DNA of 64,000 nucleotides, taken from Armatimonadota bacterium. Its GTDB lineage: Bacteria; Armatimonadota; UBA5829; DTLH01. The translations under genes and the position numbers were made by a program. Below are positions 46,840 to 64,000 of this stretch, piece by piece. The stretch covers positions 63-64,062 of the forward strand of contig JBDKSP010000088.1 in the NCBI GenBank assembly GCA_039680575.1, written 5' to 3'. The notes below the pieces were generated by a model. The model did not search any database. It saw only the letters and a list, made by a program, of their open reading frames with translations, and was not told the origin of the DNA. Numbering within the stretch: the stretch's first letter is position 1; every line of letters begins with the position of its first letter.

Positions 46840-48570
46840 ATGCTGGACGAGAATAAAGACCAAGAGACGAACTCCGCGGCCAATGAGTGGTCGGGAACGC
46901 CGTTCCAGGGCTGGAAAGATTCTGAGAATGGGGAGACTGAAGTGCAGGGAGAAGAGGGACAGGTGGTCGATCCTGTAAAAGAAGAGATGACGGGGACGGA
47001 AACCCCCGGTGATTCAAACGAGGATACGACGCTTGCTGAGGAGCCTTCGAAATCGAATGAAAGTCCGGTCGAAGAACCGGCTGAAGAGCTCGAAAGCAAT
47101 CAGCCCGCACCCCAGGATAACGCGGGTCAGCCCGTGGATTATTCCCGGACTTTCCGCTCGCTCCAGGAAGGTGATGTCGTTAAGGGAGTCGTTGTTCATA
47201 TAGACAAAGAAGGCGTGCTGGTCGATGTGGGCACTAAGTCCGAGGGAATTGTCCGTCCGCACGAACTGAGCCGACAGGCTAATCTTCAACCGGAAGAAGT
47301 CGTTCAGGTCGGGGACAAGATCGATGTATATGTAATGCAGTCCGAAGATCAGGACGGCGGACTGGTGCTTTCCAAAAAACGAGCCGACTTCGAGCGCGCA
47401 TGGGAGCGCGTAGAAGAGGCTCATCGAAGCGGCAAGACTCTTACAGCTATGGTTTCCGACCGGGTCAAGGGCGGAATCGTAGTCGATCTGGGCATCCGTG
47501 GGTTCGTTCCGGCTTCCCATGTTGGAAGCGGCAAGATTAAGAACCTGGATAAGTACGTCGGGCAATCGATTCCGCTGAAGGTAATCGAAGTAGACCGTGA
47601 CCGCCGGAAGGTCGTTCTTTCCAACAGACTTGCAACCGAGGACGAGCGGGAGAAGCTGAGAGCGGAAACACTCAAAACGCTTGCTGAGGGACAGATCAGA
47701 ACCGGCGTCGTGCGCAGGATTACAGATTACGGCGCATTCGTCGATCTGGGCGGTATCGATGGACTGCTTCATATCAGCGAGATGTCATGGACGAGGATCA
47801 AGCATCCTTCCGATGTCGTCAAAGTCGGAGATAAGATTCAGGTGATGGTCCTTAAGCTCAACTTGGACCAGGGAAAGGTTTCCCTTGGACTCAGGCAGAT
47901 CCTGCCGGATCCGTGGGCTGAAGTGGAAGCCAGATACCATGTCGGCGACATTATCAAGGGTAATGTCTCACGGCTGGTCCCGTTTGGCGCGTTCGTTCAG
48001 GTCGAAGGCGGTATCGAGGGTATTATCCCCAACTCCGAGCTTGCGGTTCGCCGAGTAAGCAAGCCTGAGGATGTGGTATCCGTGGGCCAGGAAGTCGAGA
48101 TTAAAGTCATCGATGTCCGACCCGAGGAGCGCAGAATGACGCTGTCGCTCAGACAGCTTCAGCCGCAGCCCCAGGAGCGTGTAAGGGAGCGATCTGAGTC
48201 ATCCAATTATGGCTCATATACCCGGGAAGAGCCCAAGACGACCATTGGCGATCTGTTCGGTGATATGATCCGCGAAGCCAGAGTCGAGCGCCGCGAGAGA
48301 AAGCGCCGCGAACGCGAGGAAGCCGATGATGTCGAGATGTCTGTCGACGTAGAAGAGCCGATGTTCCCTGAGCCGGCTGAAACAGTCGAAGAGACTCCCG
48401 AAGTAGTTGAAGCTGTCGAAGAAACTCCGGCTGCAGAGGAGGAGACCCCTGCTGAGACTGCTCAGGAAGCCGTCGAGGCTGTAGAGGTATCAGAAGAGCC
48501 GAAAGTTCTGGCCGAAGAGATAGAGACTTCCGAGCCCGCAGCTGAGGGTGAGGAGCCTAAGACCGAGTAA
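46840..48570 (+). CDS. rpsA: 30S ribosomal protein S1 with acidic N- and C-terminal extensions
   Basis: Four recognisable S1 domains (GxV..I...GA.V..G). A ~105-aa acidic N-terminal region and a ~90-aa Glu-rich C-terminal tail. Confidence 0.85.
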   Translation: MLDENKDQETNSAANEWSGTPFQGWKDSENGETEVQGEEGQVVDPVKEEMTGTETPGDSNEDTTLAEEPSKSNESPVEEPAEELESNQPAPQDNAGQPVDYSRTFRSLQEGDVVKGVVVHIDKEGVLVDVGTKSEGIVRPHELSRQANLQPEEVVQVGDKIDVYVMQSEDQDGGLVLSKKRADFERAWERVEEAHRSGKTLTAMVSDRVKGGIVVDLGIRGFVPASHVGSGKIKNLDKYVGQSIPLKVIEVDRDRRKVVLSNRLATEDEREKLRAETLKTLAEGQIRTGVVRRITDYGAFVDLGGIDGLLHISEMSWTRIKHPSDVVKVGDKIQVMVLKLNLDQGKVSLGLRQILPDPWAEVEARYHVGDIIKGNVSRLVPFGAFVQVEGGIEGIIPNSELAVRRVSKPEDVVSVGQEVEIKVIDVRPEERRMTLSLRQLQPQPQERVRERSESSNYGSYTREEPKTTIGDLFGDMIREARVERRERKRREREEADDVEMSVDVEEPMFPEPAETVEETPEVVEAVEETPAAEEETPAETAQEAVEAVEVSEEPKVLAEEIETSEPAAEGEEPKTE

Positions 48571-49665: not shown

Positions 49666-49876
49666 CTGACCAAGAAAAGTTCGCGGGTGGACGAAATTGC
49701 GGGCTAATGATGGGATCATCTGTGAGTCCGGTCAATTACGTGGTCGCAGGGATAATCCACTGTCCGGCTGGTACAATTTGTAACAAATCGAACTTGCGCC
49801 ATCGGTATAAAGGCAGGTTGCCTGACCGGCACTTTGCTAACGGTGGTCGTAAAGATTCTTGGGGAGGAAGTTTTCG

Positions 49877-51652
49877 TTGAATCTAAGGAAGCACGAGAGG
49901 CTTTATAGGCTGGTGTCCTGTGTCACGGTGTTTGGATTCATACTGCCGTTGATGCTGACAGTATTTCCGCAGGCTGCTGTAGCACAGTCACAGGCTCAGA
50001 CGCCGATGCAAGTAGGCGTGGTCGAATTCCGTAATGATTCTGGCGTGCAGGGAAGTATGCTTGCCAGGTTTGCTACGGACGCGGTGGTAATCGAGCTCAG
50101 CAAGTCGGACCGCTTTGATGTTATCACAAGAGCGCAGATCGATGCGCAGATGAAAGACCTTGGAATTGCCAACCCGCTTAACAGCGTCGAGCGTAACAGA
50201 TTGGGAGAGGCTCTCTACGCCGATGCTATGATCGAAGGTTCAATCAAGGCAGTCGAACTCCGGGGCAGCGGGTCTACACGCCGTGCTGCCGTCACCATTG
50301 TCATTCGAATGGTCGATCAGTCATCCGGCGAGGTCATTAACGGCGCTATCCAGACAGGTACCAGTAATGTGCGTGTCGGCAGCAGTCCGGACGATGACAA
50401 GCTGATTTCGGAAGCCATTAACAACGCTGCATATCAGGCTGTCAAAACGATGATCGATTACATCATCCCCGAGGCGACAGTCCAGAATACGATCAGAACC
50501 AATGAGATTCTGTTGAATAAGGGTGCCAGAGACGGCATCAGGTTAGGTATGCGGATGATCGTTACGCGGGACCGCGAGATCATTGGGGAAGTCGAGATCA
50601 GGAAGGTAGACCCGGACAACGCGACGGGTTTCATAGTAAAGCAGACACGGGGAATCAGCCCGGAAGACAAGGCTAGAGCAGTATTCGATATGCCGGAGAT
50701 CGCCAGAGTACAGGCGGATTCCGGTACGAAATCCGGTCCTCCTACCGTTTCATCAAAGAAGTCGAGTTCTTTGCCTAAGATCGGTAGAGTGCTCCTGGGT
50801 GTACTTGTTGCCTGGGGTGTATCGAAAATCTTCGATTCTGATGGCACAGAAAGCGTCGGTGGTGTGACCGCTGAAGCAGGATTGTCCGGTTATAACCTGC
50901 CCGTTGAAAGCGGCAGCCCCGGTGTTAGGGTAAAATGGGATGCCAGTAAACTCGGACGCGGCAAGAATGTCATAGAGTATCATATCTGGAGGAACGACGT
51001 AAGCGGTCCAGTGCTTACAGCCCGCGCTTCGGATGGTGTAGCTTTTGATGATGCAAACACCAGGTCTACAGCATATACCACCGCCAACAGCGAGACGAAT
51101 GCTAAGACTACCGGCACGACTACAGTTCCTGCTATGACACTCAGCACGCCTCTTAAATACTGGGTTTCCGCGCTTTATATGGTCCAGTCTTCGGATAGCA
51201 CTCTATATTATGAAACGGACAAAGTTGCTACCGGCCAGGCGACACCTATGTCTCAGATAGCTGTAGCAAATCTCACGCTGCCGGCTGCTGGCAGTCAGCA
51301 GAACTTGCAGAAAGTAACATTTGAGTGGCTTTCCAGAAGAGGCGCGGATGTCTACATAGTTGAAGTTTCAAGCGACCCGACATTCCAGAACCCTGAATAT
51401 GTAAGCAGTCCTGTATACTACTCTCCGGCCGCAGATGGTCAGACGGTAAGGCTGGTGGTATCAGCGTCACTCTATAACTTATTCTCAAGCACAACAAGTG
51501 ATCAACCGATCTGGTGGCGAGTCGGGATGCGGGCAAGTGGAGACTCACCTGGACCAATTCCGGCAAGCGGAAGGTCCAGTATGCGATATTTATATAGTGA
51601 AATAAACTCATTCTATCCGGCTGATACACCTCCGGGCACGCCGGATCAGTAA
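49877..51652 (+). CDS. secreted/lipoprotein-like protein: CsgG/LpoB/FlgO-like N-terminal alpha/beta domain, internal hydrophobic segment, C-terminal Fn3-like repeats
   Basis: TTG start with GGGGAGG 9 nt upstream and a signal peptide (NLRKHERLYR-LVSCVTVFGFILPLMLTVF-PQAAVA). The N-domain pattern VGVVEFRNDSG...RFDVITRAQIDAQMKDL resembles the CsgG-like lipoprotein family. First gene of a four-gene co-directional cluster. Domain call is tentative. Confidence 0.4.
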   Translation: MNLRKHERLYRLVSCVTVFGFILPLMLTVFPQAAVAQSQAQTPMQVGVVEFRNDSGVQGSMLARFATDAVVIELSKSDRFDVITRAQIDAQMKDLGIANPLNSVERNRLGEALYADAMIEGSIKAVELRGSGSTRRAAVTIVIRMVDQSSGEVINGAIQTGTSNVRVGSSPDDDKLISEAINNAAYQAVKTMIDYIIPEATVQNTIRTNEILLNKGARDGIRLGMRMIVTRDREIIGEVEIRKVDPDNATGFIVKQTRGISPEDKARAVFDMPEIARVQADSGTKSGPPTVSSKKSSSLPKIGRVLLGVLVAWGVSKIFDSDGTESVGGVTAEAGLSGYNLPVESGSPGVRVKWDASKLGRGKNVIEYHIWRNDVSGPVLTARASDGVAFDDANTRSTAYTTANSETNAKTTGTTTVPAMTLSTPLKYWVSALYMVQSSDSTLYYETDKVATGQATPMSQIAVANLTLPAAGSQQNLQKVTFEWLSRRGADVYIVEVSSDPTFQNPEYVSSPVYYSPAADGQTVRLVVSASLYNLFSSTTSDQPIWWRVGMRASGDSPGPIPASGRSSMRYLYSEINSFYPADTPPGTPDQ

Positions 51653-51755: not shown

Positions 51756-54752
51756 TTGAACCATAGATATTTACAACTGATGCGATGCAAATGGGCTGTT
51801 ATCTTATTCGCGGTGTTCGTGCTATCCGCGAATGCTGTCGCAGCAGATACTCCGGCAACATCGGCTTATGTACAAAACCAGTTATTAGTCCGGCTCGCGC
51901 CTGGCCTGACTGAAGCCGAGCGAGATGCCGCATTTGATAAGATTGGCGCCAAATTGATCCGCCCTCTGGCGCTTGCAAACACATATCTCGTCGAGCTTGT
52001 GCCTACCCGTGGCGAAACTGTTCAATCTGCAATGACCAGGGCAAGTTCAGTAACAGACATCACTACCGTCGGTCCGAACTATCGAAGATATCCTACTGCT
52101 TCGGTCCCGAATGATACTTTGTGGTCGAAGCTCTGGGGTATGAAGATGATAAACGCGGACGATGCCTGGGATATTACGAAGGGCAGCTCCAGCGTAATTG
52201 TTGCTGTGCTCGATACCGACTTCAGCCTCGATCATCCCGATCTGAAAGACAGATACCTGCCAGGCACGGATACGGCGATGGGCGATGGTGATCCTTCTCC
52301 ATGGGCTCAGAAGGATAAGTTGAGTCATGGGACCCATGTCACCGGTATTATAGCAGCCCAGGGAAACAACAGCGAAGGTGTCGTTGGTGTCTGCTGGGAT
52401 GGAGTAAAGATTCTCCCCATAAAAGTGTTTGCTGACGATGGGTCAGGTGACTCGGCAGCCGTAATAGATGGACTGTATTATGCGAAAGCACAGGGCGCCC
52501 AGGTTATAAATATGAGCCTGGGTGGGGTTTATTCCGATTCTTTCGAGCATGACGCACTAAAAGACCTGTACGCTGCTGGTATTATAATCGTTGCATCCGC
52601 GGGTAATGAGGCTTCGACAGTCAGCTATCCCGCTGCGTATGCTGAAGTAATAGCGGTTTCCGCGTTGGGCGATGATGAACGTCCGGCCGATTACACAAAC
52701 TACGGTTCTGAAATAGATATTGCCGCTCCTGGCGGTGAAGATGTCGAGGATGGCGCAGGTTCTATCTGGAGCACCTGCTGGTCCAAAGACAAAGGGAATT
52801 ATTACTCAGGCTTGCAAGGGACATCGATGGCAGCGCCGCATGTCGCTGGCGCAGCAGCTCTTATGATCTCGTCAGGTATATCACCGAGCCAGGTTACAGG
52901 TATGCTTTACCGCGCAGCAAGATCGCCTAAAGTCGGTGTTCTCGATCCTTTGAAATATGGAAATGGAATTCTCGATCTGTATCAGGCGATGCATGCAAAT
53001 GCTGAAATCAATATAGTAACACCGGAAGATGCAGAAGTACTGGATACAACAACTCCTCAGTTCAAGATATCGACTTATCTTGTCCAGAAGAGCAGTATCA
53101 AGATTTATCTGGACTTTACGGATGCAAATAAAGACGGAACGCCAGATAATCTTGATGAAAGTATCGTGCTGAACGGCACGACAATGGATTCGGATTCAAA
53201 TGCCTCCTGGGATGCCGAAACCAGCACTCTTACTTTGAATTGGCCGTCAGTCGGACAATCTCCACTGTCATCAGGCACTCATACAGTATGCGTTATGGGC
53301 GACCCTGAATCAGGCGCCAATTCCGGGACAGTAAAGGACTGGAAAGTATTTTTTGTAAGACCGAAAGTGATTTCGGCAGGGCGGCACATGTTATCGATTC
53401 CTTATCCGCTGTCGTCGGATGTGACACCTTCTGATTTATTCGGAGGGGATGATTTCTGGTTGGCCAGATACATTCCATCCCAAGATTCTTATGCCACGAT
53501 AAACTATCCGTCGGGAAATGATGAAGATGCTGCCTGGCCGTCGAATCCAGGCGTACATCCGCACGGTGATACTACGGATACTCCTCCTGCGGGTCTAGGA
53601 TACTTCGTCGAGGTACTAACGGATACACCAATTTCAGTAAGTGGAACTGCAGATAAGACCAGAGCTTATGATATTACCTTGACTCGAGGGTCGACCGGAT
53701 GGAATATGATAGGAAACCCGTTCCCATTCCAGGTTGCTTGGGATAGTGTGAAGCTCACATATAGAGGTAAAACGCTGACGTTGAGAGACGCAGTTACAGC
53801 CGGTTGGATTCGTCAGGCTCTGTATAGATATACAACATCAGGATATACATTCGAGAATGATCTTATGAAGGCGGTTCTGGTACCTTGGGAGGGAAACTGG
53901 GTAAGGATACTTCCTGATTATCCGGATAGAAATACCGATACCATGGTCCTAATGGTCCCCCCGGTCGAGTCGACTTCTATTGTAGATGCATCAAAAAGCC
54001 GCGAGGCTACAACCAGCGATGGTTGGTCTGTAAATCTTGTAGCAAAAGTAGGAGATGCTGTCGATTCTCAAAATCTGATAGGTATAGACAGCAGAGCGTC
54101 CGAAGGTTACGACAAGCTTGATGTAGAAGAACCGCCGGTTTTTAACGACTATGTTCAGTTGTCTTTCACGCATAGTGATTGGGTAGACAAAACAGGCCGT
54201 TACGCAAGCGACTTCAGGTCGAGTATAGGGACAGGCAAGACTTGGGAATTTAGCGTCAAAACTGATACATTGAACAAGGATGTTTCGATATCCTGGCCTG
54301 GAATAGCTTCAGTACCGAAGAATTGCCGGCTTGTCCTGGAAGATCTCGACAGCGGTAACAAGGTATATATGCGGACTAGAAACAACTATATATACAACTC
54401 AGGAACAACCGAAAGCTCAAGAAGATTCAAGTTATATGCAGAACCGTCGGACAGCGGTTCTCTGATGATTACAAATGTAGCTATCTCTCAAACGAGAGGA
54501 TCAAGCGTAAGTATTAATTATACGATCTCGCGTGATGCGAGTGTTGAAGTCCGTGTGCGAGATAACAGGAATAAACTGATTCGCAAATTGGGCGGAAATA
54601 CAACTCGCGCCGCAGGGATTAATTCGATGAGCTGGGACTGTGCCCTCAACAACGGAGACCAGGCTCCCAGCGGTCTATATATGGCGGAGATCGTTGCTAC
54701 CGGACCGGATGGTGAGGTGGCAAAGACTATCAGGCCGATTCTGGTAAGGTGA
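51756..54752 (+). CDS. secreted subtilisin-like serine protease (peptidase S8) with I9 propeptide and ~550-aa C-terminal extension ending in a FlgD-Ig-like/T9SS-CTD-like domain
   Basis: Signal peptide and I9-type propeptide. Catalytic triad blocks VAVLDTDFSLDHPDL (Asp), HGTHVTGIIAA (His), GTSMAAPHVAGAAAL (Ser). The C-terminal 350 aa are paralogous to the next gene. Confidence 0.85.
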   Translation: MNHRYLQLMRCKWAVILFAVFVLSANAVAADTPATSAYVQNQLLVRLAPGLTEAERDAAFDKIGAKLIRPLALANTYLVELVPTRGETVQSAMTRASSVTDITTVGPNYRRYPTASVPNDTLWSKLWGMKMINADDAWDITKGSSSVIVAVLDTDFSLDHPDLKDRYLPGTDTAMGDGDPSPWAQKDKLSHGTHVTGIIAAQGNNSEGVVGVCWDGVKILPIKVFADDGSGDSAAVIDGLYYAKAQGAQVINMSLGGVYSDSFEHDALKDLYAAGIIIVASAGNEASTVSYPAAYAEVIAVSALGDDERPADYTNYGSEIDIAAPGGEDVEDGAGSIWSTCWSKDKGNYYSGLQGTSMAAPHVAGAAALMISSGISPSQVTGMLYRAARSPKVGVLDPLKYGNGILDLYQAMHANAEINIVTPEDAEVLDTTTPQFKISTYLVQKSSIKIYLDFTDANKDGTPDNLDESIVLNGTTMDSDSNASWDAETSTLTLNWPSVGQSPLSSGTHTVCVMGDPESGANSGTVKDWKVFFVRPKVISAGRHMLSIPYPLSSDVTPSDLFGGDDFWLARYIPSQDSYATINYPSGNDEDAAWPSNPGVHPHGDTTDTPPAGLGYFVEVLTDTPISVSGTADKTRAYDITLTRGSTGWNMIGNPFPFQVAWDSVKLTYRGKTLTLRDAVTAGWIRQALYRYTTSGYTFENDLMKAVLVPWEGNWVRILPDYPDRNTDTMVLMVPPVESTSIVDASKSREATTSDGWSVNLVAKVGDAVDSQNLIGIDSRASEGYDKLDVEEPPVFNDYVQLSFTHSDWVDKTGRYASDFRSSIGTGKTWEFSVKTDTLNKDVSISWPGIASVPKNCRLVLEDLDSGNKVYMRTRNNYIYNSGTTESSRRFKLYAEPSDSGSLMITNVAISQTRGSSVSINYTISRDASVEVRVRDNRNKLIRKLGGNTTRAAGINSMSWDCALNNGDQAPSGLYMAEIVATGPDGEVAKTIRPILVR

Positions 54753-54775
54753 TTGTGATAGGAGATAGAGTATTT

Positions 54776-57460
54776 ATGCTACGAACAGCAAAAATATTTG
54801 CCATTGTATTGTCGGCAGTCGCTTTGATCGTGCTGTCTGCCCCCGTATTCGCGCAGGATTATACTGCCGGTACCAGTAACGAATATCTGTTGGTAATGAT
54901 GGGTCAGCAGGAAGATGTGTATGTATACGAGCCAGAAGAAAAGCCTGTCGAAAAGCCAAGGTCAGGCCGGTGGGTGATATATACTGTCAAAGGCGATCCG
55001 GAAATATCGGATGATGATAATATTCCGTTGGTAAGGACAGCGGCTGACGGTGGACCGGGATGGAGACATGGGTTCACAACCATAAGAGTAGATAATACCA
55101 GTGAAATATTCGGAGATACTTCTCGCGGAGCTTGGGTGCTTTATCCATATATAAGTGATAAAGAAACGGGCAACTATGTGGGACTTACAGGGCAATATGT
55201 GTGCGGCCTGTGGTATGTTAACGCATCGGCTATAACTGCAAGATTCCGAATGGCGCTGGTAAGGGACCAGGTGAGGCTTGAAGTAGTACTGACCAATTAT
55301 GACACCAAATCACATTATGTTGGTCTGAGACACTGCTGCGATGTAACAACCGATGGAAATATAGATTCCATAACGCATCCGTATGTTCCAGGCAGTGGAG
55401 TTGTAATGGCTGAGACCGATTATTTAGGGTCAGCAATACCGGACTACTTTGAAATGTATGATAGTATCAGCAGTCCCAAGGTAGCAGTGAGAAATACTCT
55501 AAACGAGCAGGATGCAACTGCACCTGACAGAGCAGCATTCGGTTCCTGGCAAAATATGCAGGGAAGCGATTGGGACTTTACCGCTATACCGGATAGAGCT
55601 GTAGGGGATTACGGCTGGGCGCTCTGGTGGGCGCCTGCGCTCCTCAATCCACGTGAATCCAGGACAATTATCACTTATTTTGGAATGGCAGCAGCTACCA
55701 GTTCTTGGACATCAGATAGCGGCAGCATTGGGTCAGTGCCAAAGCAGGATCCTTTCTGCGTGGCAGTGCAGGGACCAAAATCACTCAGTATAGATTATGA
55801 TTCAAGCCAGTCATCCGATACGATGCTGCAGACTAATCCGTTCAAGATAAAAGCATATATATACAACCTGTATACTGGTGATACGACACTGAAAGATGTT
55901 CAAGTTCACTTAACCTTACCGGACGGATTAGAGTTGGTAGACGGGACCGCTACTCAAGAGATAACCAGCATACCGCCTGAAAGCGAAGGACTACCAGTAA
56001 GCTGGAATGTAAAGGCAACTGGTAAAGTGACAGGCACGCTCGATTATATCGTAACAGTTAGCGGCTCGCCGGGGTTACAAAAGCAATTGACACGTAGTAT
56101 AGTAGTCCCTTCTACAGGGACTACTCAGATACAGACAGGATGGCAGATGATCTCGACGCCATTCAAATTCGAGGATTCAAGGATAGAAGAAGCTCTGAAT
56201 CTGGCGGATGATACTTATAGCGCATCATCATGGAATCCTCAGACACAAAGTTATGATACTGTTACGAATATAGCCCCTGGTAAGGGGTACTGGTTAAAAT
56301 CAACTATAGATAGGCCGACTACAAGAGTATCGACTAGCGCGAAACCTTTGTCGGGAGCTGAATCATATTCAATAGACCTTTATACTGGCTGGAATCAGTT
56401 TGGAAACCCGTACATTTATCCTATTCCTTGGGGAAGAGTAAGGGTTTTGGGGACAGCACAGGACGGACTGCTTACGATAGACGAGGCAGTTTCAAAGAAC
56501 CTCATCAGAAAGACTATTTACTGGTGGGATACTGCCGCTGGTGAATATAGTATGTCATCAGATGAGATGGAAAATCTGGTTCCCTGGCAGGGGTATTGGA
56601 TAAAAGCTAAGCAGCCATGCCAGTTGATTATTCCTGCAGTCAGTGAGATAGGTGCAACCTTAAGTGGAGATACTACGAGAAGTAGAGGAAAAGCATCTTC
56701 TGCTTCCAGTACGACGAAATGTGATGGATGGAACCTAAAACTTGTGGCGAGAGCGGGAGAAGTTGAAGATTCCACAAATTATATAGGTATCGATAGCCGT
56801 GCATCGGACACATACGATTCAGCGGACATAGAAGAGCCGCCATCACCCGGTGATTATGTCAGTATAAGTTTTCCACATACGGATTGGGGAGCTAACAGCG
56901 GTAATTATCTTTCGGACATCAGAAGATCCACAGGTGGGACACAGACCTGGGAGTTCAATGTAACATGTGATAAGAAAAATACGGATGTTGTATTGACATG
57001 GCCGGCTTTATCTGGTGTATCGAAAGATTATACTCTGAAAATGACTGATGTAGACGGCAGCTTGACCAGATATATGCGGACTACAAGCTCATATAAATAT
57101 AACTCTGGCGAAGGTGGAGTAAGAAGGTTTAAGCTTGTTGCCGAACCAAGAGGTAATAACAGCTTAATTATAAGCGGACTTGGAATAAATACTTCTCGAG
57201 CGAACGGCAGCGCAACGATATCTTATAATCTTTCCGCGGATGCGTCTACTGATGTCAGGATCAAATCGACTTCGGGCAGGATGGTCCGTAGCCTGGCCAA
57301 AGGTAGAGGCGTTACAAGAGGAATTAATAATCTTACCTGGAACTATCGGGATGAAACCGGAGAGGCGGTTCCTGCTGGCAGTTATATGCTGGAAGTAGTG
57401 GCAACTACACAGGAGGGAGAGGTCGTTAAGACGATACGGCCATTCCTCGTGGCAAGGTAG
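54776..57460 (+). CDS. large secreted protein of unknown function sharing the ~350-aa C-terminal module (including the FlgD-Ig-like end) with the S8 protease
   Basis: ATG at 54776 with GGAGA Shine-Dalgarno and a signal peptide (MLRTAKIFAIVLSAVALIVLSAPVFA). Residues from GWNQFGNPYIYPIPW to the end align block by block with the protease C-terminus. Confidence 0.6.
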   Translation: MLRTAKIFAIVLSAVALIVLSAPVFAQDYTAGTSNEYLLVMMGQQEDVYVYEPEEKPVEKPRSGRWVIYTVKGDPEISDDDNIPLVRTAADGGPGWRHGFTTIRVDNTSEIFGDTSRGAWVLYPYISDKETGNYVGLTGQYVCGLWYVNASAITARFRMALVRDQVRLEVVLTNYDTKSHYVGLRHCCDVTTDGNIDSITHPYVPGSGVVMAETDYLGSAIPDYFEMYDSISSPKVAVRNTLNEQDATAPDRAAFGSWQNMQGSDWDFTAIPDRAVGDYGWALWWAPALLNPRESRTIITYFGMAAATSSWTSDSGSIGSVPKQDPFCVAVQGPKSLSIDYDSSQSSDTMLQTNPFKIKAYIYNLYTGDTTLKDVQVHLTLPDGLELVDGTATQEITSIPPESEGLPVSWNVKATGKVTGTLDYIVTVSGSPGLQKQLTRSIVVPSTGTTQIQTGWQMISTPFKFEDSRIEEALNLADDTYSASSWNPQTQSYDTVTNIAPGKGYWLKSTIDRPTTRVSTSAKPLSGAESYSIDLYTGWNQFGNPYIYPIPWGRVRVLGTAQDGLLTIDEAVSKNLIRKTIYWWDTAAGEYSMSSDEMENLVPWQGYWIKAKQPCQLIIPAVSEIGATLSGDTTRSRGKASSASSTTKCDGWNLKLVARAGEVEDSTNYIGIDSRASDTYDSADIEEPPSPGDYVSISFPHTDWGANSGNYLSDIRRSTGGTQTWEFNVTCDKKNTDVVLTWPALSGVSKDYTLKMTDVDGSLTRYMRTTSSYKYNSGEGGVRRFKLVAEPRGNNSLIISGLGINTSRANGSATISYNLSADASTDVRIKSTSGRMVRSLAKGRGVTRGINNLTWNYRDETGEAVPAGSYMLEVVATTQEGEVVKTIRPFLVAR

Positions 57461-57526
57461 TTCAGTTTGTTTGAAATGAGATATCGCAGGTTAATTGATA
57501 GGACAGGCTGGAAGGAAGATTTGAAT

Positions 57527-60500
57527 ATGATAGGGGTATGCAAGCGACTAGCTCTAGTTCTGGTATTTATTTTCGGAATAATGAGCCCGGTATATGCGAA
57601 TTTGAGTGGAGGAACAGTCGGGCCAGCTCATCCGACTGTCAACTCAATTTCGAATATTAGGTCAGTATGGGAAGTCGAAGACCAGAAAATACCAGATACT
57701 GAGGTATGGAGAACATACGAATTAGGTAGAAACCGGCTTACTACGGCATCAGCATGGCAAGTAAATCCTAGTTACTATAGTCTGCAGCCGGACCCGGATG
57801 CGACAATAACGGAGACTTATAATGCAGTCGATGTCGTAGAATCGGTCTATGTAGAGGTGGATGGAAGTGGCAATATTGTACTTCCTGAGAATGCTGTCGG
57901 TATAAAAGGCGTCTGGATCGACCGATGGCAAAGGAAGAGTGTGTGGCCTGGCGGCGCATTTACTGGAAACACGATAACAAGCGCCCAAGTAACACTTCCT
58001 GCAGGTATTGCACATGTATTTGTATCCTATTATAAAGCGGGAACAAATCTGATACATGTCGAGAATGCGCCTCTTCCAAGCGAATATACTGTATATAAAT
58101 ATCCAGTAACTGCTGGCTTGAAAAAGATTGTTATAAATCCGGAGATATTAAGGTTGGATCCGGATACCGCCGGATTAAGAAATGGCGGAGATGAATGGAA
58201 TAACCTTCTAGGCGTATACGATAACGAGTCTTTGAAGGGTGTAGACTATGCCGCAAGCAGGAATATCGACACAGCCTCATCAACGATATCGTTTAGCAGA
58301 ACCGTAAGCAGCAATGTCAGGAACCTTTACGTAAAGGTATCTACATATGCTATTGATTATGTCAGTATAAACGGTAATCAAGTGCTTCCTACCAGCTATG
58401 ACCCGGATACAGGAGAGATAGTGCTTCCGGAAGAAGTAACAACCGGGCAGGCGGTGGAAGTATCATATCGCCCTCTTGGAAGAAATGTTGTGACGGTAGC
58501 CCAGGTTCCAATAACAGCGGTTACCTCAGTGAGTAGTGAAAACGGTAATTGCACAGTCCAGGGATTTGATGCAGCTACTGGGAAGATAACACTACAGGAT
58601 CCTCTAGAACAGGGAACAAGAACTCTATATTGCGTATATACAGCCACTGATATGCAAAATGTCACAGGCGAAGGTTCATGGAGTTGGATGGAAGGTGGCA
58701 AACCATTTCCTATTGTACGCGAAAGCGACGATCAGGATCAGCGGTATGCTTCTCTGCAGCCGGATCCCGCAACAGGTGGCGTAAGGGTTAAAGGCGGTCA
58801 TGTGAAGTATGGGCCGTATAGACTAGATGAATGGGTGTTCCATGGTGTAGATAGAGTTGATGATGAAGATGCTGTTGGCGTAACCATGCTGGATGGCGAT
58901 GGTAAGACAATAACAACAACAGGAATCGTCGACGCGGCTGATGATAATTGGGGGTGGACTGGTATATTCCTGTTGCCTGCTCATGAACCAGTCCTTATTA
59001 AAAGTGTAATTATATCAAGTATCATAGATGGCGAATTCGTAACGGATAACTATGCGGAGTTCGCCCAGATAATGGATATCAAAACTGCTGCAGGTGACAC
59101 GGTTAGGGGTATTTACATAGATACGGACACAGCGGATGTAGGAGAAAGAGCGTTTGCTGCCAGAATATCGTACTATGTAAGTGGGAAAAACATGGTGTTG
59201 GTGCCAGGACCTTTGCCTATGCCCGCGACAGTTAGAGAAATAGACCTCGATAATCTTTTCCAGCCAAGGTCTAACTTATTGAGGATCAACCCGAATTTGA
59301 TTCAGTTTGATCCTGACACTGAAAATTGGAGAGCAAACGCCCTAAGTACCAATTTATTGGACGGATATAATGTCCTGGGTGTATTCGATAACGCAAACCT
59401 GACAGGATGGAACTATTGGACTCCCGGATCCGGAAAAATAACAATAGATGCAACCGGCGCTGCAGTTTTGCAGTTGAATTGTGTTCCTACGAGTTCAGTT
59501 ACTAGATTATTCGTTAAAGTATCGAGCTATGCCGTTGATGGTGTTTTTACTCAGTCAACCGGCGGAGCTAATTATTATCCAGGCAGATTAGCGGATGCAT
59601 TAGCAACAGATCCAGGCAATGATGTAATGAACGATGGCCATGATTATGCCTGGTACGATCCTAATATCACATCAGAGAAGCTGGAATCTACTGGATACGC
59701 GGAAACCAGAATTGGCGAAATTCACCTTGCAAAGTCATTGCCTGCAAGTGGTCAAGCTGTGTACGTGTCTTGGCGGAAATTGAGCAGGAAGAGTGTATCG
59801 CCTGCGCGACCTCGTGTTATGGCTGTTCCAGTATTCCAATATCTGGGAGATCCGGATATGCCGATGGACGAGGATGAGAATCCTCCGATAGATGCGATAG
59901 GATATCTTTCCGCAACTCCACCGGTAAATTCGGTCAGATTAAACTCATCAGGAAGCCTGCCGGAAGGCACCCAGAATGTATACTACATGGAATACCATGC
60001 GGGAATGTGTGTTGGCGGCACAGCTACATCGGCAGTATACGTCTATGGGTTATTAAGATTTACATTCCAGCCGATGTATATCGTACCAGCTGAGAGTTCT
60101 GCAACGGAGTTTGTATACAGACTTGCTGTAAGCGCTGGGTTGAATATGAGTAAGGCCATACAGCAGCCTTCATATGATTTGAATGATCGGACCAACAATC
60201 TTCTTCTGATGGACCCAAGAGCTCATCCGGTGGACTATGCACCGCTTATAAAAACTGAGCAGGGTAGGATAGACCCAATAACTCGTGAATTTGAGTTTTA
60301 TGCAGCTTCACATCCGGATAAATTGGGTTCGACTCCAACAATATCTCAAAAAGGGCCAATCAGCACGACTGTGCATGCATCAACCGTAGGGCGTGGTACG
60401 GATGGTACTGTTGATTATGGTGGAACCTATCGATATGGGTATGGGCTTGATTGGCTTACAAACTACAATACAGATCCGGATTTCCCAGTAAGCTTTGCTG

Positions 60501-63500
60501 GCGGCGACCCGTTAACACCGGTTATGCCATCTCCGATAGTCTCTGATTCGATAATCAGCGATGATGGAGCATCGAGCACAACATATACGTTTAGAGTTCG
60601 CTATTGGAACAAGGATAACATTCCTCCAAGAGCATGGCTAAAACCGTGGGCGGATGAATCTGGCGCTTCCGAATCAACGGGTGTTGTATTGTATCTTGAC
60701 CTGATGAATGTTCTCGATATTCCAGCAGAGAGCAGTCAAAGCAGCTATAGGCCGCACTTTATGACAAAGGAGTACACAGCCGATAACGACTATACAGACG
60801 GATGCGATTATATATATACAATCGCGCCGTCATCATCGAATGAGTACATATCCCTGATAACTGGAACATATCATTATTTCTTCGGATGTTCGGACGATTC
60901 GCTTAAATTAGATGATATGGATGATAACGTTGTTACAGATGATGACATTTTGCTTTTCGATGGTCAGCTGTCTGGCACTAGCTGGGCTAATTATGATCAA
61001 ACTAGCAGGACACTTACCCGTTCCAGTACTGGCCTAGATCCTTTCGAGCCAAGAAGCCTTAATGACAATGACGGCAGGCCTTGGATGCCGAGAGATATGG
61101 GTAGACGTTATAGCGCCTTCGGTGATGATAGTCCAGGCAGACCAATTAAGGATGAACCGGGTCCGCAGGATTGCCAGATATATGTCGACAGGCAGGATAG
61201 AGCACCGGGTCAATTCGAGTTCCTCTATCCTCAGCAGTATGAGTGGAAGTGTATAGAACATCCTGATATATCGATTACATTGAGTGGGTATGGCAGTAAA
61301 GCTGCCGATGGTTTCCCGAGGTTCTTTGGGACAATAAGTCCATTCTATAGAGCAGTAAACCCGAGCGAAGGTACACCGTGGGTATATGCCGGCTTCGGTT
61401 ATATGGCTTCACGCATGGAATCTTGTGGCGCCACGACTTCGACTATGCTTACGTTCAAGGTCAAGTGTTATCAGAGGGATAATACTGCTCCGCTCTGGGT
61501 GAAGGTCTTCATAAACAATGAGAGTATGAAGATTCTCGATTACAATACAGGGCAGTCGATGAAACCGGAGAACGGCGGTTATACAGGCTATACAATGATG
61601 CCTGCTGCCGTCCAAACATCGGAGTATCAGTCACAGACAGCGCCATACGATTATTCGCTTGGTGTTGATTACGAGTTCAAGACCCAGCTTCCCGCCGGGC
61701 CGCATACCTATTTCTTTATGGCAAACGATGGTATAGCGACTGCGCTTTATCCTGCAAGGCCTGAAGGAGATAAATGGATTGCAGGTGTACAGCAGAATGA
61801 TGATGCCGGATTCGATAACAATTACTGTCCGGGACCATATATCAACAATGCATGCCAATTGTTGACCCCGAGCGTAACTCCGGCGACTGGTATCCAGGGA
61901 CAGCAGTATGTATACAGGGTGCTATATAAAGATGCCGATGGGCAGCGCCCGTATAAGACAAAGATATATATCGATACAGGTACCACAAGTGGCGTAATAT
62001 CGGTAGATATGCTCAAAGAGGACCCATCCGCTTCTGATTATAAAAATGATGGCGTATGGTATGTGCTAAATACTGCAACGATGGAGGATCGTACACTTGC
62101 TAAGGGTGTAAGGCGCTATAGATTCGAGTTTACCGATGACTGGGGCAGGCCTGACGATCCTAACGACGCAATAGAAGGTCAGATGACAAACTATCCAGCG
62201 TCTGGCTCCTGGGTAGATGGTCCTACTATCGGTGAGAATGTACCTCCGACACTAAGGTATGGGAAGATAGAGAGCCCGGATGGTACGGCAAACGGAGCTA
62301 CGCTTTGGGGATTCGAAGTTGAATATAAAGACTTAAATAGCGATGCTCCCAAGTATGTAACTCTATACACAGGCAGATTACAAGATGATGGTACCACGAT
62401 AGAGTGGGACAACGGGACTCAAATGTCACAGGCCGACCCCGGTGACAGTATATACAGTGATGGTTGTGATTTCGTGTTGCAGAAGAGGCTGGAGCAGGCA
62501 TTAGATCCTACAGATGATGCGCCTACATATTATTATGCGTTTGAAGCGTCTGATGGTATAAGCCTGGCGACATGGGTAGGAGAAGATGATCCGACAATTG
62601 ATAAGATCTCTGAATCAGCGGGATGCCTTCTCAAGGAACCGCTTACAACAACGGATTATCTGACTTATTCCTGTAGTAAAACGCCTATTGTAGGGACGCT
62701 GCAGAACCAGCCGACAGATGCCGGTATTCTTATAGACCCGATTGTTTGGGCTTATATGAATGGCGATACGGCAAACCCGGTAATTTTGAGCCGGAAAGAC
62801 GAGTATGTATGTAAAGGCGTAAACCAGAATCTAACAGGAGCGAACACTGTATCTCGATATTACCCGGCAGATCCTCCGGGTTCGGATTTGATTCCGGTTG
62901 AGGCAATAGACCCGGCATATAAGCCGGACATTACTGAGGTTATTGGTGTATATGATAATTCCAGCTTAACAGGAACGAATTATTTCCTTGCGGATGATGG
63001 TACACCAGGAACATATTCAAGTACAAGTTTCATGATAACCTTGCAGAAGAGTCTCCCCTATGGTCAAAACTGGGTGTGGATCAAGTATAACCATAGCGGA
63101 AATCATTCTTATACGCTGGACCGGTGGAACGGTGAATTTACCTTCGATGAGGCAATGGATTCTACAGATGTGTTAGTAGTAGACTATTTCTTCGGAACAA
63201 AACACGAAATTCCGATAGGAATAAATATACCGCCGACATTGAGTAGTCCAAAGCTTACACCGATGGTAGGCGGATCCGGCACAGACTTCGTATATTCTAT
63301 AGAATATAAGGAGACTGAGGGGACGAATGGTCAAGCGCCATCGTTTGTTAGGGTCGTTATAGACGGTGTAGAGCACACGATGAGCACGACAGTGTCGGAT
63401 ACACCGTCCTATAGATCAAGCGTAGTATATAAATATACCGCGAAGCTTGAGAGCGGCGCGCATGAATATTACTTCACTACCAGTGATGGTGTGGGACTGG

Positions 63501-64000
63501 TAACATTACCGGAGGTGAATCAGACTACCGGAAAAATAGAGGCATACGTTGGACCATGGGTGAATAATTCACCAGCGCTCAGCGATGGATCAGCGACACC
63601 GAACCCGGATTCCGGAAGTATAAGTACGACGCAGAGTGTAGTGTATTCGGTAACTTACAGCGATCGCGACGGTGATTTGCCGATTACATTAGCTCCGTTC
63701 GCCAACGATCTGGGAGCGGCAGACGAAATAAAACTTATGAAGTTCCCGATGCCGCTGCTATACACGGACAACACAAATGAGACCTGGAATGTCGGAATCG
63801 TCGATGATATTATCGAAGACCCGGCTCAACCTGGTAAATACAGGTGTATTCGTGTTATGGGAAGTGACGGTCAATCAGCGAGTTATAAAGTAGACCAGTT
63901 TGCTGGAAAGCTGATACAGTTCATTGGCGGTGATCTGGACGGAAGAGTCTATCTGATTGCCAACAATACCAGCAACGTCCTCAAACTGATGACGGATGAC
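57527..64000 (+). CDS. giant repeat-rich secreted protein, 5'-partial view: more than 2,158 codons open to the window end
   Basis: Translated by hand codon by codon from the ATG at 57527 to position 64000 without a stop. GGAAGGAAG Shine-Dalgarno 9 nt upstream. N-terminus MIGVCKRLALVLVFIFGIMSPVYA is a signal peptide. Contains at least two repeated module families. Missing from the ORF track because no stop lies in the window. Confidence 0.8.
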   Translation, partial: MIGVCKRLALVLVFIFGIMSPVYANLSGGTVGPAHPTVNSISNIRSVWEVEDQKIPDTEVWRTYELGRNRLTTASAWQVNPSYYSLQPDPDATITETYNAVDVVESVYVEVDGSGNIVLPENAVGIKGVWIDRWQRKSVWPGGAFTGNTITSAQVTLPAGIAHVFVSYYKAGTNLIHVENAPLPSEYTVYKYPVTAGLKKIVINPEILRLDPDTAGLRNGGDEWNNLLGVYDNESLKGVDYAASRNIDTASSTISFSRTVSSNVRNLYVKVSTYAIDYVSINGNQVLPTSYDPDTGEIVLPEEVTTGQAVEVSYRPLGRNVVTVAQVPITAVTSVSSENGNCTVQGFDAATGKITLQDPLEQGTRTLYCVYTATDMQNVTGEGSWSWMEGGKPFPIVRESDDQDQRYASLQPDPATGGVRVKGGHVKYGPYRLDEWVFHGVDRVDDEDAVGVTMLDGDGKTITTTGIVDAADDNWGWTGIFLLPAHEPVLIKSVIISSIIDGEFVTDNYAEFAQIMDIKTAAGDTVRGIYIDTDTADVGERAFAARISYYVSGKNMVLVPGPLPMPATVREIDLDNLFQPRSNLLRINPNLIQFDPDTENWRANALSTNLLDGYNVLGVFDNANLTGWNYWTPGSGKITIDATGAAVLQLNCVPTSSVTRLFVKVSSYAVDGVFTQSTGGANYYPGRLADALATDPGNDVMNDGHDYAWYDPNITSEKLESTGYAETRIGEIHLAKSLPASGQAVYVSWRKLSRKSVSPARPRVMAVPVFQYLGDPDMPMDEDENPPIDAIGYLSATPPVNSVRLNSSGSLPEGTQNVYYMEYHAGMCVGGTATSAVYVYGLLRFTFQPMYIVPAESSATEFVYRLAVSAGLNMSKAIQQPSYDLNDRTNNLLLMDPRAHPVDYAPLIKTEQGRIDPITREFEFYAASHPDKLGSTPTISQKGPISTTVHASTVGRGTDGTVDYGGTYRYGYGLDWLTNYNTDPDFPVSFAGGDPLTPVMPSPIVSDSIISDDGASSTTYTFRVRYWNKDNIPPRAWLKPWADESGASESTGVVLYLDLMNVLDIPAESSQSSYRPHFMTKEYTADNDYTDGCDYIYTIAPSSSNEYISLITGTYHYFFGCSDDSLKLDDMDDNVVTDDDILLFDGQLSGTSWANYDQTSRTLTRSSTGLDPFEPRSLNDNDGRPWMPRDMGRRYSAFGDDSPGRPIKDEPGPQDCQIYVDRQDRAPGQFEFLYPQQYEWKCIEHPDISITLSGYGSKAADGFPRFFGTISPFYRAVNPSEGTPWVYAGFGYMASRMESCGATTSTMLTFKVKCYQRDNTAPLWVKVFINNESMKILDYNTGQSMKPENGGYTGYTMMPAAVQTSEYQSQTAPYDYSLGVDYEFKTQLPAGPHTYFFMANDGIATALYPARPEGDKWIAGVQQNDDAGFDNNYCPGPYINNACQLLTPSVTPATGIQGQQYVYRVLYKDADGQRPYKTKIYIDTGTTSGVISVDMLKEDPSASDYKNDGVWYVLNTATMEDRTLAKGVRRYRFEFTDDWGRPDDPNDAIEGQMTNYPASGSWVDGPTIGENVPPTLRYGKIESPDGTANGATLWGFEVEYKDLNSDAPKYVTLYTGRLQDDGTTIEWDNGTQMSQADPGDSIYSDGCDFVLQKRLEQALDPTDDAPTYYYAFEASDGISLATWVGEDDPTIDKISESAGCLLKEPLTTTDYLTYSCSKTPIVGTLQNQPTDAGILIDPIVWAYMNGDTANPVILSRKDEYVCKGVNQNLTGANTVSRYYPADPPGSDLIPVEAIDPAYKPDITEVIGVYDNSSLTGTNYFLADDGTPGTYSSTSFMITLQKSLPYGQNWVWIKYNHSGNHSYTLDRWNGEFTFDEAMDSTDVLVVDYFFGTKHEIPIGINIPPTLSSPKLTPMVGGSGTDFVYSIEYKETEGTNGQAPSFVRVVIDGVEHTMSTTVSDTPSYRSSVVYKYTAKLESGAHEYYFTTSDGVGLVTLPEVNQTTGKIEAYVGPWVNNSPALSDGSATPNPDSGSISTTQSVVYSVTYSDRDGDLPITLAPFANDLGAADEIKLMKFPMPLLYTDNTNETWNVGIVDDIIEDPAQPGKYRCIRVMGSDGQSASYKVDQFAGKLIQFIGGDLDGRVYLIANNTSNVLKLMTDD

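Follow-up and report, generated by a model that had tools for sequence, protein, structure and literature searches.

We examined a 64,000-nt stretch of DNA from an Armatimonadota bacterium (GenBank assembly GCA_039680575.1, contig JBDKSP010000088.1, positions 63 to 64,062 of the forward strand; hereafter the window), in which a subtilisin-type (S8) protease and the 903-aa protein encoded next to it, here called p900, end in the same multidomain module, which we refer to as the cassette or tail. The two genes belong to a cluster of four open reading frames (ORFs), all on the plus strand and arranged head to tail, that code for 597 aa, 998 aa, 903 aa and an open giant of more than 2158 aa, and a Sec-type signal sequence can be read from the translation at the N-terminus of all four. 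Both tailed ORFs are as a preliminary description of this DNA had given them, and every peptide quoted there is present in the translations. The genes of the cluster, with the catalytic domain of the protease, are:

49859 to 51652, plus strand: F1, a CsgG/LpoB-fold protein of 597 aa that opens the cluster (Pfam CsgG, LpoB)
51756 to 54752, plus strand: S8 (subtilisin-type) protease of 998 aa (Pfam Peptidase_S8)
52188 to 52925, plus strand: S8 catalytic domain, aa 145-390 of the protease, its cargo or head, outside the shared module (Pfam)
54749 to 57460, plus strand: p900, the 903-aa paralog, with a signal peptide, a head of about 300 aa of no recognised family, an immunoglobulin-like (Ig-like) domain and the C-terminal cassette (translation)
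57527 to 64000, plus strand: giant ORF starting with ATG, a signal peptide followed by more than 2158 aa of repeats, its frame open to the window end and running past the edge

The two tails are clearly homologous. Protease residues 597-997 align with p900 residues 496-901 at 159 identities in 417 columns (38%, with 57% positives; BLASTP, 271 bits, E=3e-81), and the real tail pair scores 269 bits, whereas 200 shuffles of the p900 tail gave 16.1 +/- 5.5 bits with a maximum of 24.6, so that the shared C-terminal module proposed in the preliminary description stands far apart from its shuffled controls. The N-terminal parts are unrelated, as had also been stated (best match 15.4 bits, E=5.5). The extent of the module had been underestimated: the sharing is real, but the suggested length of about 350 aa left out the first of its domains. 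The module in fact begins about 100 residues before the GWNMIGNPF/GWNQFGNPY motif, near aa 540 of the protease and aa 462 of p900, and measures about 460 aa and about 440 aa, respectively; a hidden Markov model (HMM) of the first domain, GW1, built without p900-class sequences, matches p900 aa 463-513 at E=3e-7. No third copy of the cassette was found within the 64-kb window; in other genomes there are many proteins that carry it.

Upon alignment of 64 sequences, from which the boundaries of the parts were taken, the cassette resolved into four parts: a tandem-duplicated pair of domains for which we use GW as a descriptive label only, a flexible linker, a beta-sandwich of about 140 aa, and an Ig domain of the type found in FlgD and in the C-terminal domains (CTDs) of the type IX secretion system (T9SS). 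In the two window copies these parts are:

53373 to 53666, plus strand: protease GW1, aa 540-637, and 53667 to 53966, plus strand: protease GW2, aa 638-737 (alignment, AlphaFold2 and hhalign)
53967 to 54020, plus strand: protease linker, variable, aa 738-755 (low identity, low predicted confidence)
54021 to 54452, plus strand: protease middle beta-sandwich, aa 756-899 (conservation, AlphaFold2)
54453 to 54749, plus strand: protease terminal Ig domain of FlgD_ig type, aa 900-998, ending ...IRPILVR (Pfam)
56132 to 56365, plus strand: p900 GW1, aa 462-539, and 56366 to 56641, plus strand: p900 GW2, aa 540-631 (alignment, GW1 HMM)
56642 to 56725, plus strand: p900 linker, Ser/Thr-rich and variable, aa 632-659 (alignment)
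56726 to 57154, plus strand: p900 middle beta-sandwich, aa 660-802 (alignment)
57155 to 57457, plus strand: p900 terminal Ig domain of FlgD_ig type, aa 803-903, ending ...IRPFLVAR (Pfam)

Between the protease and p900 copies, identity is 24% in GW1, 35% in GW2, 12% in the linker, 50% in the middle domain, which is thus the most conserved part, and 40% in the terminal Ig domain. By hhalign, GW1 is a homolog of GW2 (probability 94.7%, E=6e-8), GW1 of p900 cross-matches GW2 of the protease (BLAST, E=0.003), and the invariant motifs GWNxIGNP and PWxGYW lie in GW2. An AlphaFold2 model of protease aa 535-742, made from a 33-sequence alignment, gave a single compact unit with a predicted local distance difference test score (pLDDT) of 92.5 and a predicted template modelling score of 0.88. 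Foldseek found no PDB match to this model at E<=1e-3; its best match had E=0.046 and a template modelling (TM) score of 0.27, the weak matches being cupins and jelly rolls. A model of the whole tail reached a lower pLDDT, 69.8; in it the linker is disordered (pLDDT <50 at module residues 200-215), whereas the middle domain and the terminal one are all-beta. The PDB matches of this model are generic tandem-Ig proteins (Vpr fibril, PorU, GH2, C5a peptidase) at TM scores of about 0.15-0.2, and we did not use them as functional evidence.

The middle domain is recognisable by the motifs W.L.L.A, IGIDSRAS, D..D.EEPP, TWEF and RRFKL, and had no sequence match in Pfam, NCBIfam or PDB; the idea that it is a diverged copy of the terminal or GW domains was rejected (hhalign probability <1%). 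The terminal domain, all-beta with a pLDDT of about 80-91, is the only part of the cassette with solved sequence relatives: a profile search of PDB returned FlgD (5e-8) and the PorU CTD (7e-4). It matches Pfam FlgD_ig in both proteins (protease aa 910-983, 35.0 bits; p900 aa 819-888, 34.7 bits; cut-off 27), and in p900 this match at the extreme end is the sole one in Pfam, with weak NCBIfam matches of that domain to the CTDs of PorZ and PorU only. The very end of the chain is Arg or Lys in 50 of the 64 aligned cassettes. The GW pair and the middle domain are undescribed in Pfam-A (2025 copy) and NCBIfam (2026), which cover the last domain only, and a full-text literature search returned nothing on either of them.

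Focusing on the heads, the protease consists of a signal peptide, a fervidolysin-like N-propeptide (Fervidolysin_NPro-like, 26.1 bits), the catalytic domain (Peptidase_S8, 188 bits against a cut-off of 21.8), an Ig-like spacer and the cassette. All of its catalytic triad motifs are present (VLD..., SHGTHV and GTSMAAP); among orthologs in the same position, the catalytic His and Ser columns are kept wherever the sequence reaches them (His in 42, with one gap; Ser in 43), and each printed ortholog sequence spanning the xxD motif shows its Asp. By domain score and triad together, the protein is a subtilase (peptidase S8). For the p900 head we found no relative in PDB.

Word-index searches returned only 6 matches for the tail and 10 for the GW alignment, and we therefore ran an exhaustive HMMER search with the tail profile over 1.84 billion representatives. 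This gave 3798 representatives at E<=1e-30, some of which are FlgD_ig repeat arrays. Among the 150 best, 128 carry the full cassette in one stretch, and in each of these no more than 16 residues separate its end from the C-terminus. When one genome per species was scanned, at least 78 loci were located, to which the locus counts below refer, and in nearly all of the 167 tailed ORFs of 78 loci the cassette is again C-terminal. About 50 loci come from Armatimonadota-type metagenome-assembled genomes (MAGs) of Fimbriimonadales, Chthonomonadales (including Chthonomonas calidirosea, L047), Armatimonadia and Abditibacteriales; the remainder come from Calditrichota, KSB1, Marinimicrobia, Cytophagia/Bacteroidota, WOR-3, Stahlbacteria and WS1. 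The heads vary widely, in keeping with the preliminary description of the module as a cassette on different cargo proteins: besides the S8 protease they include a PD40 propeller with CarboxypepD_reg repeats, a polysaccharide deacetylase with ASH/Cep192-type Ig repeats, FG-GAP, beta-helix, Laminin_G and a PQQ propeller, and in Calditrichota, KSB1, Marinimicrobia and Cytophagia it is giant proteins that terminate in the cassette. Public names for these proteins are 'hypothetical protein', 'PKD repeat protein' and 'subtilisin family serine protease', and one public source misnames a cassette fragment 'flagellar hook assembly protein FlgD'.

Closest to the window is L001, an Armatimonadota MAG in which the first three cluster proteins are 83-92% identical at the amino-acid level and the giant about 76%. 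Each Armatimonadota tail is nearest to the ortholog in the same position elsewhere, with identities of 0.30-0.85 (at least 0.5 in better-sampled clades), while paralogous tails of the same genome are only 0.27-0.39 identical; the paralogy of the tails is ancient, without concerted evolution. Against a more distant Armatimonadota-type locus (L005), the protease is 36% identical in the tail and 32% in the head, and p900 33% and 23%, respectively; the tails are thus conserved no less than the heads.

The cassette also occurs in shortened forms. In an Armatimonadota genome that keeps the synteny of the window (L080, GCA_021373255.1, 10001-22334), the protease (777 aa) and the second protein, p677 (677 aa), both stop directly after GW2, and the giant of 2681 aa, 33-36% identical to that of the window, shows GW1 and the beginning of GW2 some 116 residues short of its stop, where the available sequence ends. 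Middle and terminal domains have thus gone from all three tailed proteins of this lineage together, with the GW pair kept. Two further proteins (P0183 and P0184) terminate in the GW pair only, and WOR-3 and Stahlbacteria versions stop after the middle domain. Because the L080 lineage lost the middle and terminal domains yet kept the GW pair, the two halves of the cassette may do separable jobs, and since the GW pair persists where the rest is lost, it would be the core of the shared function.

These relatives also bear on the giant of the window, which the preliminary description had tied to the tail. The link is real in relatives: besides the L080 ortholog with its GW pair at the end, a 2021-aa protein of Chthonomonadia loci (L028, L031-33) ends in the full cassette and is 30-32% identical over about 400 aa to the repeat region of the window giant. 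By comparison with L080 and L028, the window giant, whose C-terminus lies beyond the window, probably carries the same tail. Its last 458 visible residues gave no match when searched against proteins by word index, and a metagenome scan for its C-terminus found one locus (L079), where only the repeat is shared and the cassette is absent. The giant matches no Pfam or NCBIfam family. Judged from the translation and from overlapping matches to the Chthonomonadia tailed protein, its repeats are roughly 100-150 aa long and follow the pattern ...PPTL...Y.V.Y.D.DG..P....V.IDG......Y..G..Y.Y...L..G.H.Y.F.ASDG; they occur also in Chthonomonadia tailed giants, in one protein from WS1 (L050) and in an unrelated one from a metagenome (L079).

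The tailed genes keep constant company. In Armatimonadota-type loci the order is ribosomal protein S1, CoaE, a giant of about 1800-1900 aa (PD40, CarboxypepD_reg and tail), F1, the tailed S8 protease, tailed p900, in Chthonomonadia the tailed 2021-aa protein, and then two further genes, F2 and F3; in the lineage of the window (L001, L004, L080) it is S1, CoaE, F1, S8 protease, p900 and giant. S1 and CoaE lie directly upstream of the cluster also in distant members of the phylum. The cluster thus contains three or four tailed proteins, two membrane proteins of CsgG/LpoB fold and a putative outer-membrane barrel. In 39 related loci the gene immediately before the protease is an ortholog of F1 (about 595 aa). 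The F1 of the window matches CsgG (PF03783) at 30.5 bits against a cut-off of 20.8, over profile positions 3-158 of 210 only, and LpoB at E=2.5e-4; it comprises an N-terminal signal, the LpoB/CsgG-like domain (aa 43-172), a small barrel-like domain, a hydrophobic helix (about aa 305-325) that is conserved in the ortholog alignment, and a beta-rich C-terminal part. No clean lipobox was seen after the hydrophobic region in F1, which has instead this conserved, alpha-helix-like hydrophobic segment and the extra domains. The helix is preceded by Lys-rich sequence and followed by a beta-rich region of about 270 aa with a Pro-rich end, as also in L005 (6579-8357), and with a cleaved signal peptide this topology would, oddly, place the C-terminal half in the cytoplasm.

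F2, present in 32 loci, is a small CsgG/LpoB-fold protein of about 236 aa with a C-terminal hydrophobic helix, and F3, present in 28, is a protein of about 650 aa that starts with a signal peptide, contains a Big_1/invasin-type Ig domain and has ...LLTAFY at the end of its C-terminal part, by which we regard it as the putative outer-membrane barrel. A profile of F3 matched only the invasin and intimin Ig domains in PDB. F2 and F3 are the last genes of the cluster, as seen at 14064-16755 of L005, 20210-20983 of L028 and 15191-17395 of L042. We considered LptE- and LptD-like identities for the two and did not adopt them, as they gave single sub-threshold matches only (LptE, E=0.014; LptD_N, E=0.0054); a role related to lipopolysaccharide, if true, would suit surface attachment, although the matches are too weak to call.

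A similar association was found in the Fibrobacterota-Chlorobiota-Bacteroidota group with its allied candidate phyla (FCB). Nine FCB-type loci have one or two CsgG-domain proteins upstream of the tailed giant (Pfam CsgG, E from 5e-13 to 2e-6), either of 230-260 aa or of 450-475 aa with TPR repeats and a lipobox. In eight loci a protein of about 390 aa with an aromatic last residue follows immediately downstream, and five of the eight match OMP_b-brl; a PorV- or PorP-like identity for this barrel was discarded, with no match in Pfam, NCBIfam or PDB. The combination of tailed proteins, CsgG/LpoB-fold proteins and a putative barrel thus recurs in two very distant phylum groups.

The terminal domain connects the two groups as well. 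In FCB cassettes it matches both FlgD_ig and Por_Secre_tail (27.4 bits in L072 and 28.6 bits in L076; cut-off 27), one protein (P0005) has a precomputed PF18962 assignment with the classic NYPNPF...K sorting domain, and the terminal domains of the window align column by column with those of the FCB cassettes. By these alignments the last domain of the cassette is a homolog of T9SS sorting domains, with the window proteins themselves scoring below the family cut-off. In the full-text literature we found nothing relevant on Armatimonadota with T9SS or FlgD Ig-like domains as sorting elements.

We favour, with moderate confidence, the view that the tail is a cargo-independent element for delivery to the surface or outer membrane and for attachment there on a common platform. 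We infer this from its strict C-terminal position, its indifference to cargo, the Sec signals and the homology of its last domain to a C-terminal sorting domain, together with the persistence of the GW pair alone and the recurrence of membrane-protein and barrel neighbours. The cassette would then mark the Sec-exported proteins of one conserved envelope cluster, namely the protease, p900 and one or two giants. The terminal Ig domain would be the export or sorting part, with any cleavage likewise conjectural, and the GW pair the docking part, the minimal element that binds the mature protein to an envelope platform; candidates for that partner are the co-encoded CsgG/LpoB-fold proteins and barrel, which would form the platform or on which it would depend. 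The protease would be an enzyme held at the surface beside p900 and the giant. The common sorting, anchoring or partner-binding function suggested in the preliminary description is in this sense partly supported. That a C-terminal element sorts or anchors diverse exported proteins is a known idea, and this multidomain version of it is new, set apart by a GW pair of predicted new fold, by operon-level use in Armatimonadota and by partners of CsgG/LpoB fold.

Several observations weigh against delivery and attachment of this kind. The window proteins have no PF18962 or TIGR04183 match at E<=0.1, and Armatimonadota are not known to have type IX secretion. The GW pair lacks a structural relative in the Foldseek search of PDB that would indicate its ligand. 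The CsgG/LpoB-fold partners of Armatimonadota have transmembrane helices rather than lipoboxes, and nothing points to a pore of CsgG type. The call of F3 as a barrel comes solely from a C-terminal aromatic residue and sequence pattern, the putative barrels of the two phylum groups are not detectably homologous, and in FCB-type loci a CsgG-domain neighbour was present in only 9 of about 24 within the sequence examined. We raise only tentatively the wider proposal that the GW-pair tail, the CsgG/LpoB-fold proteins and the barrel make up an unrecognised envelope system for very large surface proteins, T9SS-independent in Armatimonadota and T9SS-combined in FCB, with the GW pair as a docking signal of new fold.

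The cassette can be compared with several known systems. Like the type A CTD of T9SS (PF18962 Por_Secre_tail, TIGR04183), its terminal domain makes up the last 80-100 aa of unrelated Sec-exported proteins and is an Ig-like beta-sandwich, with Calditrichaceae and Cytophagia cassettes reaching the Pfam cut-off and the PorU CTD appearing in the PDB profile search. Unlike it, the window copies match FlgD_ig and lack the NYPNPF-type motif of P0005, the whole cassette is about five times larger, and the terminal domain is dispensable in L080 and in the WOR-3 and Stahlbacteria variants. In Bacteroidota, T9SS cargo with a type B CTD has a cognate outer-membrane protein of the PorP/SprF family encoded next door. 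The arrangement here is similar in combining a large surface protein, a C-terminal recognition domain and a dedicated, here putative, barrel immediately beside it, but these barrels match no PorP/SprF, PorV or PorQ model, the cassette fails the type B models, and CsgG/LpoB-fold proteins are extra partners. As to the FlgD hook-capping protein (PF13860), the terminal domain exceeds the Pfam cut-off and aligns to structures 7eh9 (E=5e-8) and 7bhq, whereas cassette proteins lack the FlgD N-terminal domain, score 22-28 bits with NCBIfam FlgD equivalogs that have cut-offs of 230-383, and sit with a secreted protease, S1, CoaE and a CsgG-like gene rather than in a flagellar operon.

The neighbours recall curli CsgG and holdfast HfaB (PF03783) in carrying a CsgG/LpoB-type domain above the cut-off and in being co-encoded with exported proteins. 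They differ in that the CsgG profile is matched partially, LpoB and TolB-N models match too, and Armatimonadota versions have transmembrane helices and extra domains; moreover, the shared signal of the cargo is C-terminal here and N-terminal in CsgA, and nothing indicates a pore. Large subtilases such as fervidolysin, Vpr and the C5a peptidases ScpA/ScpB likewise have an S8 domain followed by several beta-sandwiches, fervidolysin with the same type of N-propeptide and Vpr and ScpA/ScpB with weak Foldseek matches to the whole-tail model, but those matches are generic (TM about 0.2), proteins other than proteases carry the tail too, and nothing in those structures corresponds to the GW pair. The GW modules of Listeria and Staphylococcus (SH3-like; PF13457) resemble the cassette only in a Gly-Trp motif and in the concept of repeats that attach a C-terminus to the wall; there was no PF13457 match at E<=0.1 and no SH3-like match in PDB, and size, motifs and predicted fold differ. 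Unlike PEP-CTERM and LPXTG signals, the ends ...AKTIRPILVR and ...VKTIRPFLVAR lie inside a beta-sandwich, with no terminal hydrophobic helix.

Among other explanations, the tail could be a substrate- or ligand-binding module, similar to a carbohydrate-binding module (CBM) or adhesin, that targets enzymes and giant adhesins to an external polymer or surface. We consider this unlikely, though it has points in its favour: the cassette domains are all-beta, like many CBMs, a conserved acidic loop in the middle domain (D..N..G...DG.D..D.EPP) could bind calcium, and among the cargoes are a protease, a polysaccharide deacetylase and lectin-like domains. The weak Foldseek matches of the whole-tail model to GH2 accessory Ig and sugar-binding domains are, however, generic at a TM score near 0.15, and no CBM family matched at E<=0.1. 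Most cargoes are not carbohydrate-active enzymes; a strict C-terminal position in more than 250 proteins would be unusual, as binding modules occur at either end or internally; and the conserved association with membrane-anchored CsgG/LpoB-fold proteins and barrels speaks for the envelope of the cell itself as the target.

It is rather improbable, in our estimate, that the tail is a self-assembly module through which the tailed proteins of one operon polymerise or co-assemble into a surface lattice or fibre, with the protease and the giants incorporated in one structure; such assembly would not conflict with delivery and attachment. Three or four proteins bearing this tail are co-encoded and have been passed down as a set throughout the phylum, and the whole-tail model finds its best PDB match by Foldseek in the subtilase Vpr in fibril form (8jmw, E=1.8e-7), which is reported (PMC10657474) to make extracellular fibrils that are enzymatically active. 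That match has a TM score of 0.19 and a root-mean-square deviation of 15 Å over 211 columns, typical of any tandem Ig/Fn3 array, and many FCB-type loci have one tailed protein only.

We find it doubtful that the tail, or its middle and terminal domains, is a C-terminal pro-region or intramolecular chaperone that is removed after export and folding and leaves mature proteins with nothing functional in common. Some secreted subtilases have C-terminal pro-sequences, and T9SS CTDs, to which the terminal domain is homologous, are removed after export. A poorly conserved flexible linker lies between the GW pair and the two later domains, the lineage without those domains still has GW-ended proteins, and a protease predicted to be catalytically intact is always co-encoded in Armatimonadota. 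On the other hand, no conserved cleavage motif was seen in the linker, the same tail is borne by non-enzymes, and the GW pair and middle domain are at least as conserved as the catalytic head over phylum-level distances, which argues for a function in the mature protein. Finally, it is excluded that the similarity arose by compositional chance, or by recent duplication or gene conversion at this locus, and has no functional meaning, even though the two genes are adjacent and on the same strand: the tail pair outscores every one of the 200 shuffles by a wide interval (269 bits against at most 24.6), the cassette occurs in thousands of proteins (3798 representatives at E<=1e-30, some of them FlgD_ig repeat arrays), and each copy resembles its positional ortholog from another order of the phylum more than it resembles the adjacent copy.

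Several further features of the locus were recorded. The stop of the protease gene overlaps the first possible start of p900, a GTG at 54749 (GTGA), and an ATG at 54776 would give a cleaner signal peptide (MLRTAKIFAIVLSAVALIVLSAPVFA); whichever start is used, the two genes are tightly packed, as in an operon. A promoter and terminator scan of 49.3-57.7 kb returned signals no better than those in shuffled sequence. G+C content is 0.45-0.49 across the tailed genes and the giant (52000-64000) versus 0.50-0.55 in positions 1-52000, for which a biased amino-acid composition is likelier than recent transfer because the cluster is syntenic phylum-wide beside S1 and CoaE. The ribosomal protein S1 homolog of the window (576 aa, 46840-48570) has long acidic low-complexity extensions at both ends. 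In a groundwater MAG (L003, 9267-10406), a second, partial S8 head, 54% identical to aa 37-415 of the window protease, interrupts the giant gene and is probably an assembly artefact or a rearrangement.

Armatimonadota are widespread and barely cultured, and the construction of their cell surface is essentially obscure. The cassette offers a sequence handle on a set of surface proteins, as we read them, and on their likely envelope partners: a protease predicted to be catalytically intact, p900 and giants that range from 1800 aa to beyond 2600 aa, found phylum-wide in the same chromosomal place. The GW pair and middle domain sit in thousands of database proteins labelled hypothetical or misnamed FlgD, and for the GW pair a confident predicted structure without a solved relative is now available. 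By linking a phylum not known to have T9SS to the T9SS-type sorting domains of FCB, the cassette could shed light on the recruitment of C-terminal sorting domains and on the attachment of giant adhesin-like proteins in two-membrane bacteria outside Proteobacteria. These ideas are testable in Chthonomonas calidirosea, which is cultured and in which the cluster is present.

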